A stretch of DNA of 64,000 nucleotides from Escherichia coli (GTDB lineage: Bacteria > Pseudomonadota > Gammaproteobacteria > Enterobacterales > Enterobacteriaceae). The DNA is taken from the NCBI RefSeq assembly GCF_044647545.1, contig NZ_CP172818.1; one strand, 5' to 3'. Below are positions 5,120 to 40,763 of the stretch, one piece after another. A program made the position numbers and the translations under genes. Each line of letters begins with the position of its first letter. Within the stretch, counting starts at the first letter, position 1. The notes under the pieces are model-generated. The model was not told the origin of the DNA and made no database searches. It saw only the letters and a list, made by a program, of their open reading frames with translations.

Positions 5120-5204
5120 AGGCCAGAAATCCAGACTATCAATACTGACCGAACCAATCCCCCAAATACCATAATAATCGGCAATCAGACAGTAATTAAA
5201 TACC

Positions 5205-5495
5205 TAACACTTACTCTCATACTTATTTTTCCCCAAACCTTATCCCCACGACCAAACGACAAAAATAAACATCATATAGAAATTGATACCAGAAACCCCC
5301 CCATCTTTACACATAAACCACACCCACAAACGACGCAAGAAGACGATAAACCAAAAAAGAAAACCCCCCAAACGAAAAAAAAAAAAAGGAAAACCAAAAA
5401 AAAAAAAAAAAAAAAAAAAAAAAGAAAAAAAAAAGAAAAAAAAAAAAAAAAGAAAGGGAAAAAAATAAAAAAGAAAAAAAAAAAAAAAAAGATAG
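5205..5495. repeat. low-complexity A-rich tract (plus strand); core 5381-5490 is roughly 90% A with an uninterrupted A28 run at 5396-5423
   Basis: Direct inspection; 5205-5380 is already nearly G-free A/C-rich sequence that degrades progressively into poly(A); normal composition resumes abruptly at about 5491 (gatagcatgttcgctgac). Confidence 0.9.
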
Positions 5496-11819: not shown

Positions 11820-11844
11820 AAAGGCCCATTCGGGCCTTTTTTAG
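11820..11844 (+). terminator. rho-independent terminator after sotB
   Basis: aaaggcccattcgggcc hairpin followed by T6. Confidence 0.6.
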
Positions 11845-12506
11845 TGGTACGTTTTAATGATTTCCAGGATGCCGTTAATAATAAACTGCACCCCCATACA
11901 TACCAGCAGGAATCCCATCAGACGGGAGATCGCTTCAATGCCACCCTTGCCCACCAGCCGCATAATCGCGCCGGAGCTGCGTAGGCTTCCCCACAAAATA
12001 ACCGCCACCAGGAAAAAGATCAGCGGCGGCGCAACCATCAGTACCCAATCAGCAAAGGTTGAACTCTGACGCACTGTGGACGCCGAGCTAATAATCATCG
12101 CTATGGTTCCCGGACCGGCGGTACTTGGCATTGCCAGTGGTACAAAAGCAATATTGGCGCTGGGTTCATCTTCCAGCTCTTCCGACTTGCTTTTCGCTTC
12201 CGGTGAATCAATCGCTTTCTGTTGCGGAAAGAGCATCCGAAAACCGATAAACGCGACGATTAAGCCGCCTGCAATTCGCAGACCGGGAATCGAAATGCCA
12301 AATGTATCCATCACCAGTTGCCCGGCGTAATACGCCACCATCATGATGGCAAAGACGTACACCGAGGCCATCAACGACTGACGATTACGTTCGGCACTGT
12401 TCATGTTGCCTGCCAGGCCAAGAAATAACGCGACAGTTGTTAATGGGTTAGCTAACGGTAGTAACACCACCAGCCCCAGGCCAATTGCTTTAAATAAATC
12501 TAACAT
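11841..12506 (-). CDS. marC: MarC-family inner membrane protein, 221 aa
   Basis: 221-aa hydrophobic ORF divergent from marRAB. Confidence 0.9.
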
Positions 12507-12599
12507 TGGTGGTTGTTATCCTGTGTATCTGGTTTATCAGCGAAAAGTATAAGGGGTAAACAACGATAAAGTGTCACTCTTTAGCTAACCTTGCATCGC

Positions 12600-12717
12600 A
12601 CTGACCAAAACTTGAACCGATTTAGCAAAACGTGGCATCGGTCAATTCATTCATTTGACTTATACTTGCCTGGGCAATATTATCCCCTGCAACTAATTAC
12701 TTGCCAGGGCAACTAAT
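12600..12717 (+). promoter_or_regulatory. marO: marRAB promoter/operator with marbox (12619-12643) and two palindromic MarR sites (about 12662-12678 and 12697-12715)
   Basis: gatttagcaaaacgtggcatcggtc marbox; TTGCC..GGCAA palindromes tacttgcctgggcaata and ttacttgccagggcaacta immediately upstream of the GTG start. Confidence 0.8.
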
Positions 12718-13152
12718 GTGAAAAGTACCAGCGATCTGTTCAATGAAATTATTCCATTGGGTCGCTTAATCCATATGGTTAATCAGAAGAAAGATCGCCT
12801 GCTTAACGAGTATCTGTCTCCGCTGGATATTACCGCGGCACAGTTTAAGGTGCTCTGCTCTATCCGCTGCGCGGAGTGTATTACTCCGGTTGAACTGAAA
12901 AAGGTATTGTCGGTCGACCTGGGGGCGCTGACCCGTATGCTGGATCGCCTGGTCTGTAAAGGCTGGGTGGAAAGGTTGCCGAACCCGAATGACAAGCGCG
13001 GCGTACTGGTAAAACTTACCACCAGCGGCGCGGCAATATGTGAACAATGCCATCAATTAGTTGGCCAGGACCTGCATCAAGAATTAACAAAAAACCTGAC
13101 GGCGGACGAAGTGGCAACACTTGAGCATTTGCTTAAGAAAGTCCTGCCGTAA
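12718..13152 (+). CDS. marR: multiple antibiotic resistance repressor MarR, 144 aa, GTG start; carries E53, S103, H137
   Basis: Recognised sequence; codons 12874-12876 gag, 13024-13026 agc, 13126-13128 cat. Confidence 0.95.
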
Positions 13153-13172: not shown

Positions 13173-13556
13173 ATGTCCAGACGCAATACTGACGCTATTA
13201 CCATTCATAGCATTTTGGACTGGATCGAGGACAACCTGGAATCGCCACTGTCACTGGAGAAAGTGTCAGAGCGTTCGGGTTACTCCAAATGGCACCTGCA
13301 ACGGATGTTTAAAAAAGAAACCGGTCATTCATTAGGCCAATACATCCGCAGCCGTAAGATGACGGAAATCGCGCAAAAGCTGAAGGAAAGTAACGAGCCG
13401 ATACTCTATCTGGCAGAACGATATGGCTTCGAGTCGCAACAAACTCTGACCCGAACCTTCAAAAATTACTTTGATGTTCCGCCGCATAAATACCGGATGA
13501 CCAATATGCAGGGCGAATCGCGCTTTTTACATCCATTAAATCATTACAACAGCTAG
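13173..13556 (+). CDS. marA: AraC-family activator MarA, 127 aa
   Basis: [31 protein letters not shown]...; second ATG of the ORF chosen. Confidence 0.95.
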
Positions 13557-13587: not shown

Positions 13588-13806
13588 ATGAAACCACTTT
13601 TATCCGCAATAGCAGCTGCGCTTATTCTCTTTTCCGCGCAGGGCGTTGCGGAACAAACCACGCAGCAGTTTGTTACTTCCTGTGCCAATGTCGTGGTTGT
13701 TCCCCCATCGCAGGAACAACCACCGTTTGATTTAAATCACATGGGTACTGGCAGTGATAAGTCGGATGCGCTCGGCGTGCCCTATTATAATCAACACGCT
13801 ATGTAG
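13588..13806 (+). CDS. marB: MarB, periplasmic small protein, 72 aa
   Basis: 72-aa ORF with signal peptide after marA. Confidence 0.9.
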   Translation: MKPLLSAIAAALILFSAQGVAEQTTQQFVTSCANVVVVPPSQEQPPFDLNHMGTGSDKSDALGVPYYNQHAM

Positions 13807-18298: not shown

Positions 18299-18414
18299 TT
18301 GAAAATTATTATAACGGAAGGGTATACAAAAAAAGATTTTGCTGGCGACTGCGAAACGGCATTCGCATTAGCGGTGAAGTTTGCCCTCGCCCAGCTGCTG
18401 CAATTACTGCTATA
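18299..18414 (+). pseudogene. ydeJ: short remnant resembling the C-terminus of CinA-like YdeJ; most of the gene appears absent
   Basis: Frame ending ...DFAGDCETAFALAVKFALAQLLQLLL* 46 bp before the convergent dcp stop; only about 360 bp separate ydeI from dcp, no ATG and no upstream CinA-domain coding sequence. Confidence 0.4.
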
Positions 18415-27436: not shown

Positions 27437-28011
27437 CTACGGCAGTGCTGGCCATTCAATATCCTGTGCAGTTGACGTATCAACACGGTTCAGCAATACC
27501 CGATACTTTTTCCATGCTTCCAGCAACGGGGTTTCTTCCTCCGTTGCAATTTCCAGATCTGCAGCATCCTGAAGCGGCGCAATATGCTCACTGGCTACCT
27601 GCATCAGGTTGTTTTTTTTTCTTCCGCTTCCCGTATCCGAAACAGTTTTTCTGCTTCCTCATCATTCACCCAGGATACGCCGTCCCACTTCTGATACTCC
27701 CCTGCTGGCGACAACCAGGTGACATTCTCTGGTAGCGGTCCGAGTTCAGAAATAAACAATGCGTCCCCCGACGCCACGTCATAGACCGTTTTACCACGAT
27801 GGTCTTCAACAATATTCCACGATTCATTTTCACTGTTAAAAACTGCCACAAAGCCAGCAGGAATTTCCGGTGGGGCGATATCTGTAGAATTAGCTGGCAG
27901 CCCTGTATGAGGTGGAATATATGCGTCACCTTCACCAATAAACTCATTAGTTCCGGCCAGCAGGTTATAAATTTTTACGGTACGTGATTGTTCACTCATT
28001 CTGAATGCCAT
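27437..28011 (-). pseudogene. tfaQ: tail fibre assembly protein TfaQ, frameshifted at a 9-nt homopolymer (27612-27620)
   Basis: N-terminal frame stops after ...EAEEKKTT at 27604; the C-terminal part ([22 protein letters not shown]...DIEWPALP*) continues in another frame to a stop at 27437-27439. Confidence 0.7.
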
Positions 28012-30542: not shown

Positions 30543-30731
30543 ATCATAACGTCCGGTTTCTCTCACTCCTGAGCCGGACTGCATTGGTTTAATAAAAACC
30601 ATCGACAATCGAGATTTATATCTATTCGGTAATGTTTAAATATAACAAAACCCCGTAAAAACGAGGTTTATGGGTAATTTGTATTGTTGAATAGCATCTG
30701 ATGAGAAATTGATGCTAATACTATAAACATG

Positions 30732-30905
30732 CTAGATTAAATCAATCTTGATATCATAGCTTTCAAGACCAGTCATTTTTTCCCGTGCAGTAAACTGGAT
30801 ACTGGTAACTTCTTTCCCGGTCTTTTTCTTAAGCTCAATGATTTTTTTTGTTATATATTCAGAAATATCTGCTTCTGTTTTTGTTTTTAACTCTTCAATG
30901 TTCAT
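30732..30905 (-). CDS. gnsB: GnsB (GnsA/GnsB family), 57 aa
   Basis: MNIEELKTKTEADISEYITKKIIELKKKTGKEVTSIQFTAREKMTGLESYDIKIDLI. Confidence 0.85.
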   Translation of the reverse strand: MNIEELKTKTEADISEYITKKIIELKKKTGKEVTSIQFTAREKMTGLESYDIKIDLI

Positions 30906-31077
30906 CATTTCCTCTTTTAGTCTGTTATGACTGTCCTGGTACACAGTAGTGTCAATTATATGGAGCAAACGTATAAAAGATAAGATGAAACATCGCAATA
31001 ATCAACATACGACGGTCTAAATTTCACACAAACAGATAAAGATGATTATCATTTATTATCAATGCATTAGAATCAAA

Positions 31078-31308
31078 TCAATTCAAGAGTCTCATTGCTG
31101 CTTCCAGAATTTCTTCTGAAGTTACATGTCGATCCGCTGCTACATAAATGACTTTATGATCTCCGGTCAGAGATGGAAACCCTGCAGCCATTACAGTGAG
31201 GTGTGTTGTTTCGCCATTTGGATATTCACGCATGATGGTGTTAACTCCGGTCATCACTGGCACTACCATTGCTGGTTCAGAGTTAAAAAAAACTATTATT
31301 TTTTTCAT
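31078..31308 (-). CDS. ynfN: Qin prophage small protein YnfN; start uncertain
   Basis: 89-aa ORF; several in-frame Met candidates (MKKIIVFF..., MREYPNG...). Confidence 0.5.
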   Translation of the reverse strand: MKKIIVFFNSEPAMVVPVMTGVNTIMREYPNGETTHLTVMAAGFPSLTGDHKVIYVAADRHVTSEEILEAAMRLLN

Positions 31309-31579
31309 AATGTTACCGTAATATGTGAGTATCCATCGACTAGACACTAAGCAAAAAAGCTCCCGAAGGAGCCTTCATTTTCACTTTCTTAAATCTAACG
31401 ACAGATGGCTAACATTTAAGTATTGTGAAATATTATCAAATGTAATCATCATTGATTTACAAAAGATACATTTTGCCCCGAAAGGATTTCTGTCAGAAAC
31501 ATCAAAAGATGATGTTCTATACTGAGAACCATGGCAACACGGGCATCTAAAGTGAATATGGTTTGTAATATTTTCTACC

Positions 31580-31792
31580 TCAAAGTGCCACTACATGAAC
31601 AGCTGCAGGGCCTTTAGGTCCGTTCTCAATACCAAATTCGACTTCCTGATTCTCAGTTAACGTTTTGAAATCGTTGCTCTGAATAGCTGAGAAATGCACA
31701 AACACATCTTTGCTACCATCTTTCGGCGTGATGAAACCAAAACCTTTTTCAGGGTTAAACCATTTCACTAAACCAGTCATTTTGTTAGACAT
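31580..31792 (-). CDS. cspI: cold-shock protein CspI, 70 aa
   Basis: [38 protein letters not shown]...; long AT-rich upstream leader. Confidence 0.9.
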
Positions 31793-32156
31793 CATTATTA
31801 CCTTTTGAAGAAGTTAGCCCTTGGGCAGAATGGTCCGAAAAAAAAATATCAGAGAGAAAAACCAACAAGGAAATCTCAAGAGGTACAAATAATAAAATTA
31901 TAACAATGACTGCTTCAGATAATTTTGTAACAAACCAGAACACCATTAACGCATGATTAACCAACCATAGCAAGGATTACTTTTGTAAAGAAAAACACAC
32001 GAATGAAACAATAGCTTTATTTATTAATAAAACGTGTCATTCTGTCTAATGACCTTTTATCTTACCCTTAAGATTTCAAGGATTTTGACTCATGGAAGAG
32101 TCCTTTTTATTTAAATTTCACATTCAGCGCTAAAAATAATCCGATTTAATATTAAT

Positions 32157-33180
<1,024 letters not shown>

Positions 33181-33184
<4 letters not shown>

Positions 33185-33492
33185 AGATATTTATGATGAG
33201 GACGCTCGTGCTTATTGGCAGGATTTTCAATCTTAAAGGAGTACTGATGCTGCAGATAAGACTCAACTTTTTCTGACAATTTTTCTGCTACTTCCAGGAA
33301 GACTTGCCGGACGCTCATTCTGGCTGCTGCCTCATAAAACTCCAGCGCAGCTCCTTCAACACGGTCCATGGCGACATCCAGGCCAAAAATTTCACCGTCA
33401 AAGCGTTCTTTGTCCTGTAAGGCTACAGTTACCGTAACTTTATTCTCAAAATTACGGACTCCTTTCACAACCAGTTCATAGTATTGAGTCAT
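33181..33492 (-). CDS. ydfR: Qin prophage protein YdfR, 103 aa
   Basis: 103-aa ORF between holin and endolysin. Confidence 0.75.
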
Positions 33493-33496
33493 TGGA

Positions 33497-33712
33497 TTAC
33501 TCTCCTCTCGCAGCCTTACGCCTGTCTTCTTTAATCTTGAAATAAAGATTTGTCAGGTACGTCAGCAGGCCAAATACCAGGCTACCCAGCACACCTATTG
33601 CTGCCCACTGTGAGGGCGTGACTTTATCGAGCAGCTGTAAAAACCAGTAGCCAGCACTGCCTGCGGAGGTGCCGTAGGCAATGCCTGTTGAAATTTTGTC
33701 CATGGATTTCAT
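33497..33712 (-). CDS. essQ: holin EssQ, 71 aa
   Basis: [31 protein letters not shown]... with TM segments and charged C-terminus. Confidence 0.8.
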
Positions 33713-33932
33713 AGCCTCACCTCCGCACGGAACGGATGGTGCAATATGTTTGAAAAGATCGGAGTCTACGGGGTAGTTTTGACAGCACACGTTGTTCTCA
33801 ACGGCGCTAAAAAAACATACACATTAAAAATGTGGGTAATTATTTTGAAAGAAAGTCATATATAAAATAATAATACGAGAAATGTTTTCATATTTAGTGT
33901 ACTGTATACGGCCATTTATACAGGAAAAGCCT

Positions 33933-36369: not shown

Positions 36370-36564
36370 GCTCGTTCTCCACTTACGCCAGTACGCCTAT
36401 TGCCAGCGCACGATCGATAAAACGAAATATCAGCTCCAGCTGGGAACCATACATCTCTTCAAATGCCACGGTATCCGCATGCAGCTCGTCGTGATGCTTT
36501 CTGCACAAAGGCAACACGAAGAGGTCATGCGCTTTTGTACCCATTCCACCCTGACCGTGGCCTA

Positions 36565-37470
36565 TCAGGTGATGGGGATCATCGGCAGGCTTACCACAAC
36601 ACGCACACGGCTGTGTCTTAACCCAGCGCGTGTACTTCTCATTAACCCAGCGGCGACGTTTAGGCGCTTCATAAAAGATTCCGGCGACTCTGGATCAACG
36701 GCAATGCTGACCACCGTCTTTTCCTGTGGTGGGTTCTGTTGCTGGTGGGCGTGAGGCAGCGGCGCAAGATTTTTTGTGCGCTGTTTCAGTATGCTGGTGG
36801 CGGTCTGCTCTCCCGGTACGATGTCGCTTTCGCGGTACACCGAGCAGATTTTTTCCGCTGGTAATCCCAGCGAACGACGCGATACAGCCTCAGGTAGTGC
36901 ATCCACCACCTGATTGCAGACCGCCCACCAGGATAATTCAGCCAAAGATAATTCCCGCTCCTGCGTACCGCTTATTGCGTGACGGATGACGTCAATCACC
37001 CATGCTGTCAGATTTTGTTGAGCAAGCAGCTCCAGTGATTCCGATGTCTGGTCACGCAGTTGGTTGTCGCAGTGCCAACACAACACCATTGCGCCGGTAC
37101 CATAACGGTGAATGACTGTTTCAGTGTGATGGTAATCTCCATTAGGCCACTGGCAGGATGTAACATGACGTAATAGCCAGTCAGACAATGCGCCAACGCC
37201 GCCAGCAGCACGAATCACCCGTTCGTTACTAAAAAACGGCAGCAATGTTTTGTCTTCCGCCAGCGGCTGGCCAACGGCAGGAACGACTCCGGATGGCAGA
37301 TTACGCATGCTTTTTGGTTCCGGTTCCACCAGCACTCGAGGATTATGAAATATCTGTATGGATTCACGGCCCGGCTTAAGGACCACCAGCCCAAGCTCAG
37401 GCACCAGAACAGGTCTAAGTAATACCCGCACGTTACCTCCAGATCCGTTGCTGGAAAGTGCGGGACGCAC
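36565..37470 (-). CDS. ydfU: DUF968-type prophage protein YdfU (301-aa frame, GTG start per ORF track)
   Basis: Long minus-strand ORF; its 5' end overlaps the adjacent 92-aa ORF by 38 bp in a different frame. Confidence 0.7.
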   Translation of the reverse strand: MRPALSSNGSGGNVRVLLRPVLVPELGLVVLKPGRESIQIFHNPRVLVEPEPKSMRNLPSGVVPAVGQPLAEDKTLLPFFSNERVIRAAGGVGALSDWLLRHVTSCQWPNGDYHHTETVIHRYGTGAMVLCWHCDNQLRDQTSESLELLAQQNLTAWVIDVIRHAISGTQERELSLAELSWWAVCNQVVDALPEAVSRRSLGLPAEKICSVYRESDIVPGEQTATSILKQRTKNLAPLPHAHQQQNPPQEKTVVSIAVDPESPESFMKRLNVAAGLMRSTRAGLRHSRVRVVVSLPMIPIT

Positions 37471-37711
37471 GTGGTGGGCGTTCGGAGTAAGGCAATCTGA
37501 CTGAGATTATCCAGTGACGGTAGTCGAGACTAAGGGCTTTCTTAACCTCGTATCCGCGCCTGCGGTAACACTGAATTATCCATTCAGCCTGCTCTTCAGT
37601 GCATGGAGGGTGTTGGAACCATTCAGACTTGAATGCGTGAGAATACCGCTCGTGCGTGCAGGCAAGAACGGGCGAATTATCAGAATTGTAATATTTTACG
37701 TTGCGTGCCAT
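37433..37711 (-). CDS. 92-aa Cys-containing prophage ORF upstream of ydfU (separate gene or frameshifted N-terminus of ydfU)
   Basis: MARNVKYYNSDNSPVLACTHERYSHAFKSEWFQHPPCTEEQAEWIIQCYRRRGYEVKK... Confidence 0.45.
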   Translation of the reverse strand: MARNVKYYNSDNSPVLACTHERYSHAFKSEWFQHPPCTEEQAEWIIQCYRRRGYEVKKALSLDYRHWIISVRLPYSERPPRASRTFQQRIWR

Positions 37712-37777
37712 CGGTTTTCTCCGGTGGCACGGTGTTACTCAGCGGGAGTTCAGCCCCGCGCAAGATTGTAGATGAGT

Positions 37778-38029
37778 TTATTCTTCTGCAAAAGCTGAAA
37801 AGCCTGCTTTTATTCCGATCTCTTTCAGTGCCTGTAATGAAGTGACAAACTCACCTTCGCGCAAGATAAATCCGTCTGTCACTCGACCATCCACAAAATT
37901 AATTAACGCAGCCCCATTCTTTCGCAAACACATAATGCGGTAATGACTAACAAGATTTCCATTTTCAACGCACACCGCATAGAGGCCATCTTCACAAAAA
38001 ATTTTACGCAGTTCTTCGATGTTCATCAT
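37778..38029 (-). CDS. rem: Rem, Qin prophage protein, 83 aa
   Basis: 83-aa ORF MMNIEELRKIFCEDGLYAVCVENGNLVSHYRIMCL... Confidence 0.75.
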   Translation of the reverse strand: MMNIEELRKIFCEDGLYAVCVENGNLVSHYRIMCLRKNGAALINFVDGRVTDGFILREGEFVTSLQALKEIGIKAGFSAFAEE

Positions 38030-38245
38030 CAGAATCCTTCCGGATAATTAGCTCTCCCCTTTAAGGGACCATCCCTCTTATCCCTGCGCGCTACTTAAGT
38101 ATTTTTGATTCTATTCCGGCACCGTCCAGAACTTCAAACGCGTTGAAAATAAAAACAAAAACCCGCCGAAGCGGGTTAAGTGCGGGTGCGTTGAGGATGC
38201 CTGCCACATCAGAGGTGGCGAGGGATTTCTCCCTCGCCGGGTCTC

Positions 38246-38401
38246 TTACTCCTCAGGTTCGTAAGCTGTGAAGACAGCGACCTCCGTCTGCCCGGTTCGG
38301 ATTCGTACCTCGCAGAGGTCTTTCCTCGTTACCAGTGCCGTCACTATGACGGTTAAACAGATGACGATCAGGGCGATTAACATCGCCTTTTGCTGCTTCA
38401 T
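38246..38401 (-). CDS. hokD: Hok-family membrane toxin HokD (RelF), 51 aa
   Basis: Minus strand encodes MKQQKAMLIALIVICLTVIVTALVTRKDLCEVRIRTGQTEVAVFTAYEPEE. Confidence 0.85.
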   Translation of the reverse strand: MKQQKAMLIALIVICLTVIVTALVTRKDLCEVRIRTGQTEVAVFTAYEPEE

Positions 38402-38472
38402 AGCCTGCTTCTCCTGTCAACGCAAAGCAGAAGTGTCACCTTCGGTGCGAAACAGAGATGTCATGCTTTGGT

Positions 38473-40476: not shown

Positions 40477-40763
40477 CCAGTGGTAGCCTCCATAATTGCA
40501 GGCACTAGCGCCGTGAACTTTTCACGCTTATCCCTAGTGTCGATAGCCTTCCAGCGTTCGAATATCTTCACTCGATTAACGCCAAGCGCTCGCTGATCAA
40601 CCGCGCCACCTTCATCTGTGACACGCTGAACATCGATGTTCGGGCGCTCTTTCAAAGCCCAGAATGCTTCAGTGATTAATATCGTCGCCTGCTCCTGTGT
40701 CATTCCTGGTCGACATATCCAGGCATCCAGAGCCTCACGAGCCTGTTCAGGAGTGATTTTCAT
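40473..40763 (-). CDS. ydfX: Qin prophage protein YdfX, 96 aa
   Basis: 96-aa ORF overlapping dicC stop. Confidence 0.7.
   Translation of the reverse strand: MKITPEQAREALDAWICRPGMTQEQATILITEAFWALKERPNIDVQRVTDEGGAVDQRALGVNRVKIFERWKAIDTRDKREKFTALVPAIMEATTG

Follow-up and report, generated by a model that had tools for sequence, protein, structure and literature searches.

The DNA element considered here, marO, the operator-promoter of the E. coli marRAB operon, is already known: it is a textbook element, among the best-characterised of bacterial promoters, and occurs here in its commonest allele. In the published description two MarR dimers are bound on two direct repeats. Site I is located between the -35 and -10 hexamers and site II near the translation start (PMC3920692), while the wild-type marR start is GTG and one of the operators extends to the marR coding region (PMC10359894). 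In a ChIP-seq study of MarR this promoter was the single genomic target (PMC5684230), a PmarR reporter promoter is stated to have two MarR-binding sites (PMC8614764), and mutational scanning of the K-12 marR promoter by Reg-Seq recovered the MarA site together with both MarR sites (PMC7567609). The mar DNA used with MarA is a 30-bp fragment, GAACCGATTTAGCAAAACGTGGCATCGGTC (PMC11633057), and Fis binds upstream of the marbox, providing further enhancement (PMC6003448). A 20-nt unit, TACTTGCCAGGGCAACTAAT, has been found duplicated in resistant mutants (PMC8757474, PMC3920692).

In the window, i.e. the whole 64-kb stretch of DNA analysed, marO is the marC-marR intergenic region of an E. coli strain of the ST648 lineage (Table 1). 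Its placement, with the divergent marC on one side and marR-marA-marB on the other, follows from the open reading frames and from the annotation of matching genomes, and K-12 MG1655 has these genes in the same order (ydeA-marC / marR-marA-marB-eamA). A 281-bp query across marO matches 5,416 of the 5,426 complete E. coli genomes, with marC and marR annotated under the match. The first 25 kb of the window are 99.9% identical to ST648-lineage genomes (strain ST648, IMT16316, ECONIH1 and FDAARGOS_497), and over 12480-12760 the identity to members of this lineage (e.g. FDAARGOS_497, NZ_CP033850.1, strain ST648, IMT16316 and ECONIH1) is 100%, so that their marO does not differ from that of the window. 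Between 5490 and 27548 the sole difference from FDAARGOS_497 is a 2-bp indel at 18336. A 41-aa ORF with a TTG start at 12591-12716, within marO, was discarded as a mechanical, unsupported ORF.

Table 1. Features of the mar locus in the window, with the conservation of promoter elements among 43 Enterobacteriaceae species
Feature	Position	Strand	Description	Per-base identity to window (43 species)
marC	11841..12506	-	221-aa ORF, annotated marC in 5,400+ matching E. coli genomes; divergent; bounds marO on the left	
marO	12507-12717		marC-marR intergenic region	
marC-proximal part of marO				0.33
SNP 12601	12601..12601	.	C in window, T in K-12; ~-90; 2 bp beyond the edge of the putative Fis core	
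Putative Fis accessory site core	12603..12617	.	GACCAAAACTTGAAC, 15-mer, consensus match; K-12 version GAACAAAACTTGAAC	0.35
marbox	12619-12638	+	GATTTAGCAAAACGTGGCAT; 20 bp, asymmetric; binding site of MarA, SoxS, Rob; exact, K-12-identical	0.80
-35 hexamer of marRAB promoter	12655..12660	+	TTGACT; promoter scan	0.98
MarR site I	12663..12683	+	TACTTGCCTGGGCAATATTAT; palindrome TTGCCTGGGCAA at 12666-12677; K-12-identical	0.90 (inflated by palindrome-requiring retrieval)
-10 hexamer	12678..12683	+	TATTAT; promoter scan	
MarR site II	12698..12717	+	TACTTGCCAGGGCAACTAAT; palindrome TTGCCAGGGCAA at 12701-12712; in 5' leader	0.86 (inflated by palindrome-requiring retrieval)
marR	12718..13152	+	GTG start, 144 aa; K-12 MarR plus A53E, G103S, Y137H	
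marA	13173..13556	+	127 aa, identical to K-12 MarA; cognate activator of marbox	
marB	13588-13806		downstream of marA	

Two other parts of the window depart from FDAARGOS_497, the closest genome compared. The sequence at 5160-5487 degenerates into an A-rich tract of low complexity: the segment 5160-5298 has 29 gapped bases, 21 of which are missing G, followed by ~180 nt of near-poly-A in place of ~320 bp of normal FDAARGOS_497 sequence, namely the 5' end of a minus-strand sensor diguanylate cyclase gene and its upstream region. This tract is more suggestive of an error in assembly or base calling, or of damaged sequence, than of biology. Further downstream, colinearity stops at 27548, inside a Qin-like lambdoid prophage region beside ydfJ, and past that point only fragments align (30595-33739, 36412-38415 and 40484-40619); the prophage content over 27548-64000 therefore differs from that of FDAARGOS_497.

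A preliminary description of this DNA had called the marO control region at 12600-12717 intact. Comparison with marO of K-12 MG1655 (NC_000913.3, upstream of marR, b1530) reveals 130/130 identity over 12606-12735. This segment spans the marbox, the 16-bp spacer, the -35 hexamer, site I, the -10 hexamer, the leader, site II, the GTG and the first six codons of marR. Because the MarR, MarA and Fis footprints of the primary papers were reportedly made on K-12 DNA, identity to K-12 serves as a test of the operator, with the presumed footprint borders and position of Fis on marO following secondary sources. Judged in this way, the operator has no base-level differences from the reference at positions footprinted by MarR or MarA. 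The rest of the intergenic region contains five single-base differences (window/K-12: 12533 T/G, 12564 C/G, 12588 A/G, 12601 C/T and 12605 C/A). The description of the region as intact thus holds for all MarR and MarA positions but not for 12601 and 12605, both of which lie upstream of the marbox; the accompanying statement, that the MarR variants of this strain sit in a canonical operator context, is not undermined by these two differences.

The promoter scan returned a sigma-70 promoter, TTGACT-17-TATTAT, at 12655-12683, and site I therefore fills the spacer between the -35 and -10 hexamers and abuts or overlaps the latter. Transcription presumably starts at ~12690-12691, as judged from the position of the -10 hexamer and the K-12 annotation. 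The two palindromes, TTGCCTGGGCAA and TTGCCAGGGCAA, are the sole exact matches to TTGCCNNGGCAA in the 64-kb window (0.14 expected; two matches in 0 of 100 shuffles), and they form the cores of a 15-nt direct repeat, TACTTGCC(T/A)GGGCAA, with a spacing of 35 bp. Their presence had been noted before as TTGCC-N-GGCAA, a spacing that needs correction, as the half-sites are 2 nt apart and not separated by a single N. Site II, of which the 20-nt unit is present as a single copy in the window, overlies the weak Shine-Dalgarno motif AGGG and extends up to the start codon, its palindrome ending 5 nt before the GTG. The GTG start proposed earlier for marR is borne out by the codon at 12718-12720, one base past the end of the region originally described (12717), which opens an ORF of 144 codons.

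The marbox had likewise been recognized correctly: the 25-nt string given for it, gatttagcaaaacgtggcatcggtc, is found at 12619-12643 and contains the canonical 20-bp element, the 3' end of which is located 16 bp upstream of the -35 hexamer. Even when up to 3 mismatches are allowed (<=3), the 20-bp marbox occurs only once in the 64 kb, with 0.01 occurrences expected. Two published DNA constructs can be placed directly on the window, as 12614-12643, with the marbox inside, equals the 30-mer GAACCGATTTAGCAAAACGTGGCATCGGTC used with MarA (PMC11633057), and 12614-12717 is base-for-base equal to the region bounded by the primers of the PmarR reporter (PMC8614764). A search of the literature for printed sequences of the Fis site or of sites I and II yielded primers and mutation tables only. 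We also considered two candidate elements, neither of which was retained. The minus-strand promoter-like sequence CTGGCA-17-GATAAT (12707..12679), which overlaps the MarR sites, scores 9/12, and since the two hits in the region do not exceed the chance expectation of 2.1, it provides no evidence for a marC promoter. The marbox-like direct repeat TTTAGCTAACCTTG at 12580-12593, which includes the polymorphic position 12588 (A in the window, G in K-12), is 79% identical to the marbox core TTTAGCAAAACGTG and is located 41 bp upstream of the marbox; it is not conserved outside Escherichia and its resemblance is probably due to chance.

The layout of the region, the absence of any base change from K-12 in the elements for MarR, MarA and RNA polymerase, and the conservation within E. 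coli and among other enteric bacteria (see below) lead us to regard it as the standard control region, marO, of marRAB in E. coli, which most likely works as in K-12 (with a probability of roughly 95%). By analogy with the published K-12 work, from which the binding and regulation by these proteins in the present strain are extrapolated, MarR dimers would occupy the two near-identical palindromes. On site I, between and over the -35 and -10 hexamers, MarR would exclude RNA polymerase, and on site II it would sit over the short leader and ribosome-binding region just before the GTG of marR, so that the operon would be kept low. Inducers or oxidation would release MarR and permit transcription, whereupon MarA (or SoxS or Rob) would bind the marbox, which ends 16 bp before the -35 hexamer, in an auto-activating manner, and Fis, bound immediately beyond the marbox on its upstream side, would add a modest boost. 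The locus is of value as a control, as altered mar expression in this strain would not be attributable to mutations of the operator, marbox or core promoter; attention is therefore directed to the MarR variants, A53E especially, or to other regulators.

Both cognate regulators, MarR and MarA, are encoded in cis. MarA is 100% identical to its K-12 counterpart, MarR is identical at 141/144 positions (the MarR of FDAARGOS_497 is WP_022645711.1), and MarB differs at 4/72 residues (S5L, P27Q, V28F and H44Q). The MarR repressor is the only component that differs meaningfully from K-12, and its occupancy could differ even on an identical operator, given the three substituted residues, including A53E. 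This leaves room for a reading in which the operator is canonical and the circuit is not, with the lineage-specific A53E, on the common G103S/Y137H background, weakening MarR at sites I and II and leaving marRAB partly derepressed. Residue 53 is near the DNA-binding region, just before the winged-helix region, in the MarR structures, which would be in line with such an effect. Moreover, the combination A53E/G103S/Y137H, together with AcrR H115Y, has been reported in three highly ciprofloxacin-resistant isolates (PMC5177599). These isolates, however, also carry gyrA S83L/D87N, the effect of an efflux inhibitor on them was only additive, and the MarR triple was reported there without a functional test (PMC5177599). 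The distribution of the substitution also speaks against this reading: the codon haplotype of A53E is exact in 86 records, a number close to the 82 records that match the 25-kb flank at >=99%, and the closest matches to this flank include a wild-bird isolate, a pattern more suggestive of an inherited marker of the lineage than of a mutation that has been selected repeatedly. We consider partial derepression through MarR unlikely, and the assessment of the DNA element itself is unaffected by these substitutions.

A pattern scan of species representatives for two TTGCCNGGGCAA palindromes 20-26 nt apart returned 72 loci, of which 43 are marO of Enterobacteriaceae (Escherichia, Salmonella, Citrobacter, Enterobacter, Raoultella, Pluralibacter, Atlantibacter, Trabulsiella, Mangrovibacter and others), and the remainder have no relation to marO, coming for the most part from actinobacterial genomes of high GC content and from metagenome bins. 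The identities listed in Table 1 for sites I and II are inflated because the retrieval pattern required both palindromes, whereas the values for the marbox, the -35 hexamer and the start codon are independent of this ascertainment. The start codon of marR is GTG in 39/43 species and TTG in 4/43, and never ATG; a non-ATG start in all 43/43 species suggests that weak translation initiation of the MarR repressor is itself conserved.

The sequence upstream of the marbox, where the differences from K-12 are located, requires separate consideration. The 15-mer GACCAAAACTTGAAC conforms to the consensus for Fis binding: G occupies -7 and C occupies +7, Y-4/R-3 and Y+3/R+4 are present, and the centre is rich in A/T. 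It would be centred at ~-81 if +1 is 12691. As a putative core of the Fis accessory site, it agrees with the location of this site in mar, which is centred near -81 and was reportedly mapped by Martin & Rosner in 1997. On this putative placement, 12605 (C in the window, A in K-12) corresponds to position -5 of the core, which would be a weakly specified and non-critical one. The base 12605C is shared by the five remaining E. coli genomes of the sample (K-12 and ST648 apart) and by the E. coli species representative, and 12588A is found in 4/5 of the sampled non-K-12, non-ST648 genomes in an eight-sequence alignment, so among the sampled genomes it is K-12 that is unusual at 12588 and 12605. 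At 12601, C is common only to the window and FDAARGOS_497 in the same alignment, with T in K-12 and the other five E. coli. The 85-bp haplotype 12566-12650, which includes 12601C, is exact in 144/5402 matching records; outside E. coli, C is present at this position in E. whittamii and Escherichia sp. E1V33, and T in E. albertii. The haplotype count exceeds that of A53E (86), as would be expected if both were inherited markers of nested clades, and 12601C is best interpreted from its distribution as a lineage marker or polymorphism.

It could be argued that C in place of T at 12601 (~-90) affects how Fis binds or how the DNA bends, and thereby changes the boost to the promoter once MarA, SoxS or Rob has bound. 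The position is only 2 bp from the 15-bp Fis-consensus core, flanking DNA influences Fis affinity, and the C allele is rare in E. coli. On the other hand, 12601 is outside the core, and C occurs naturally in the two other Escherichia species mentioned above. The region is also unconserved across genera, with identities of 0.33-0.35 that place 12601 and 12605 in freely evolving sequence. Furthermore, the Fis site was the one high-evidence site of the marR promoter left undetected by Reg-Seq mutagenesis (PMC7567609), which suggests small effects of substitutions there under those conditions, and the role ascribed to Fis is only that of "further enhancement" (PMC6003448). An effect of 12601 through Fis is accordingly very improbable, and the differences at 12601 and 12605 are most likely natural, neutral polymorphisms. 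We mention separately that the hexamer at 12601-12606 (TTGACC in the majority allele, CTGACC in the window) was rejected as part of a promoter, as inspection by eye revealed no usable -10 hexamer 15-17 bp downstream. In addition, GTAAACAACGATAAA at 12556-12570 resembles a CpxR box (GTAAA-N5-GTAAA), for which EcoCyc reportedly lists a site in the marR promoter, and the difference at 12564 (C, as opposed to G in K-12) falls within the N5 spacer.

A combination of the two departures may also be envisaged, in which MarR A53E and the rare T>C next to the Fis site (~-90) jointly retune the basal or induced expression of marRAB in ST648. If true, this would constitute a lineage-level regulatory adaptation that aids the multidrug-resistance success of the clone despite an apparently canonical operator, yet we regard it as a highly speculative proposition with little chance of being correct. 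Finally, the notion that the motifs are a chance resemblance in a region that is not a functional marO is refuted by the 130/130 identity to K-12, the marC/marRAB synteny, the occurrence of the motifs far above the shuffled expectation and the presence of the region in 5,416/5,426 E. coli genomes.

With the standard marO thus retained as the preferred reading, the locus can be compared with the known variants. Allele frequencies in E. coli were taken from counts of exact matches and identity bands: the 95-bp core 12606-12700 is exact in 3806/5418 E. coli records, and the 91 bp 12645-12735 are exact in 4003/5418. At each element used by MarR, MarA or RNA polymerase the window therefore carries the allele of the E. 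coli majority, with the addition of a lineage marker beside the Fis site. Among the marO lesions seen in other genomes or known from the literature (e.g. the 20-bp duplication of site II and the 35-bp deletion between sites I and II), none is present in the window. The variants absent from it comprise 12652 C>T in E. coli O103 RM8385, 12643 C>T in BL21, 12641 G>T together with 12717 T>C in E. coli SM107, and a 35-bp deletion between the repeats of sites I and II in UPEC957C. In the last of these (NZ_CM177858.1, 360911-361282) a single hybrid site remains after the deletion, the -10 hexamer and the beginning of the leader are lost, and marC is annotated as a partial pseudogene. In BL21 Star(DE3) (NZ_CM137359.1) the alignment with the marC-proximal sequence of other E. 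coli is lost upstream of the equivalent of ~12590, which suggests a rearrangement or insertion beside marO. Compared with marO of other Enterobacteriaceae, the window differs upstream of the marbox, the region of the Fis site included, and the leader and the spacer between the marbox and the -35 hexamer are variable, whereas the two TTGCCNGGGCAA palindromes 20-26 nt apart, the TTGACT -35 hexamer, the TTTAGCA...GTG core of the marbox and the GTG or TTG start of marR are shared.
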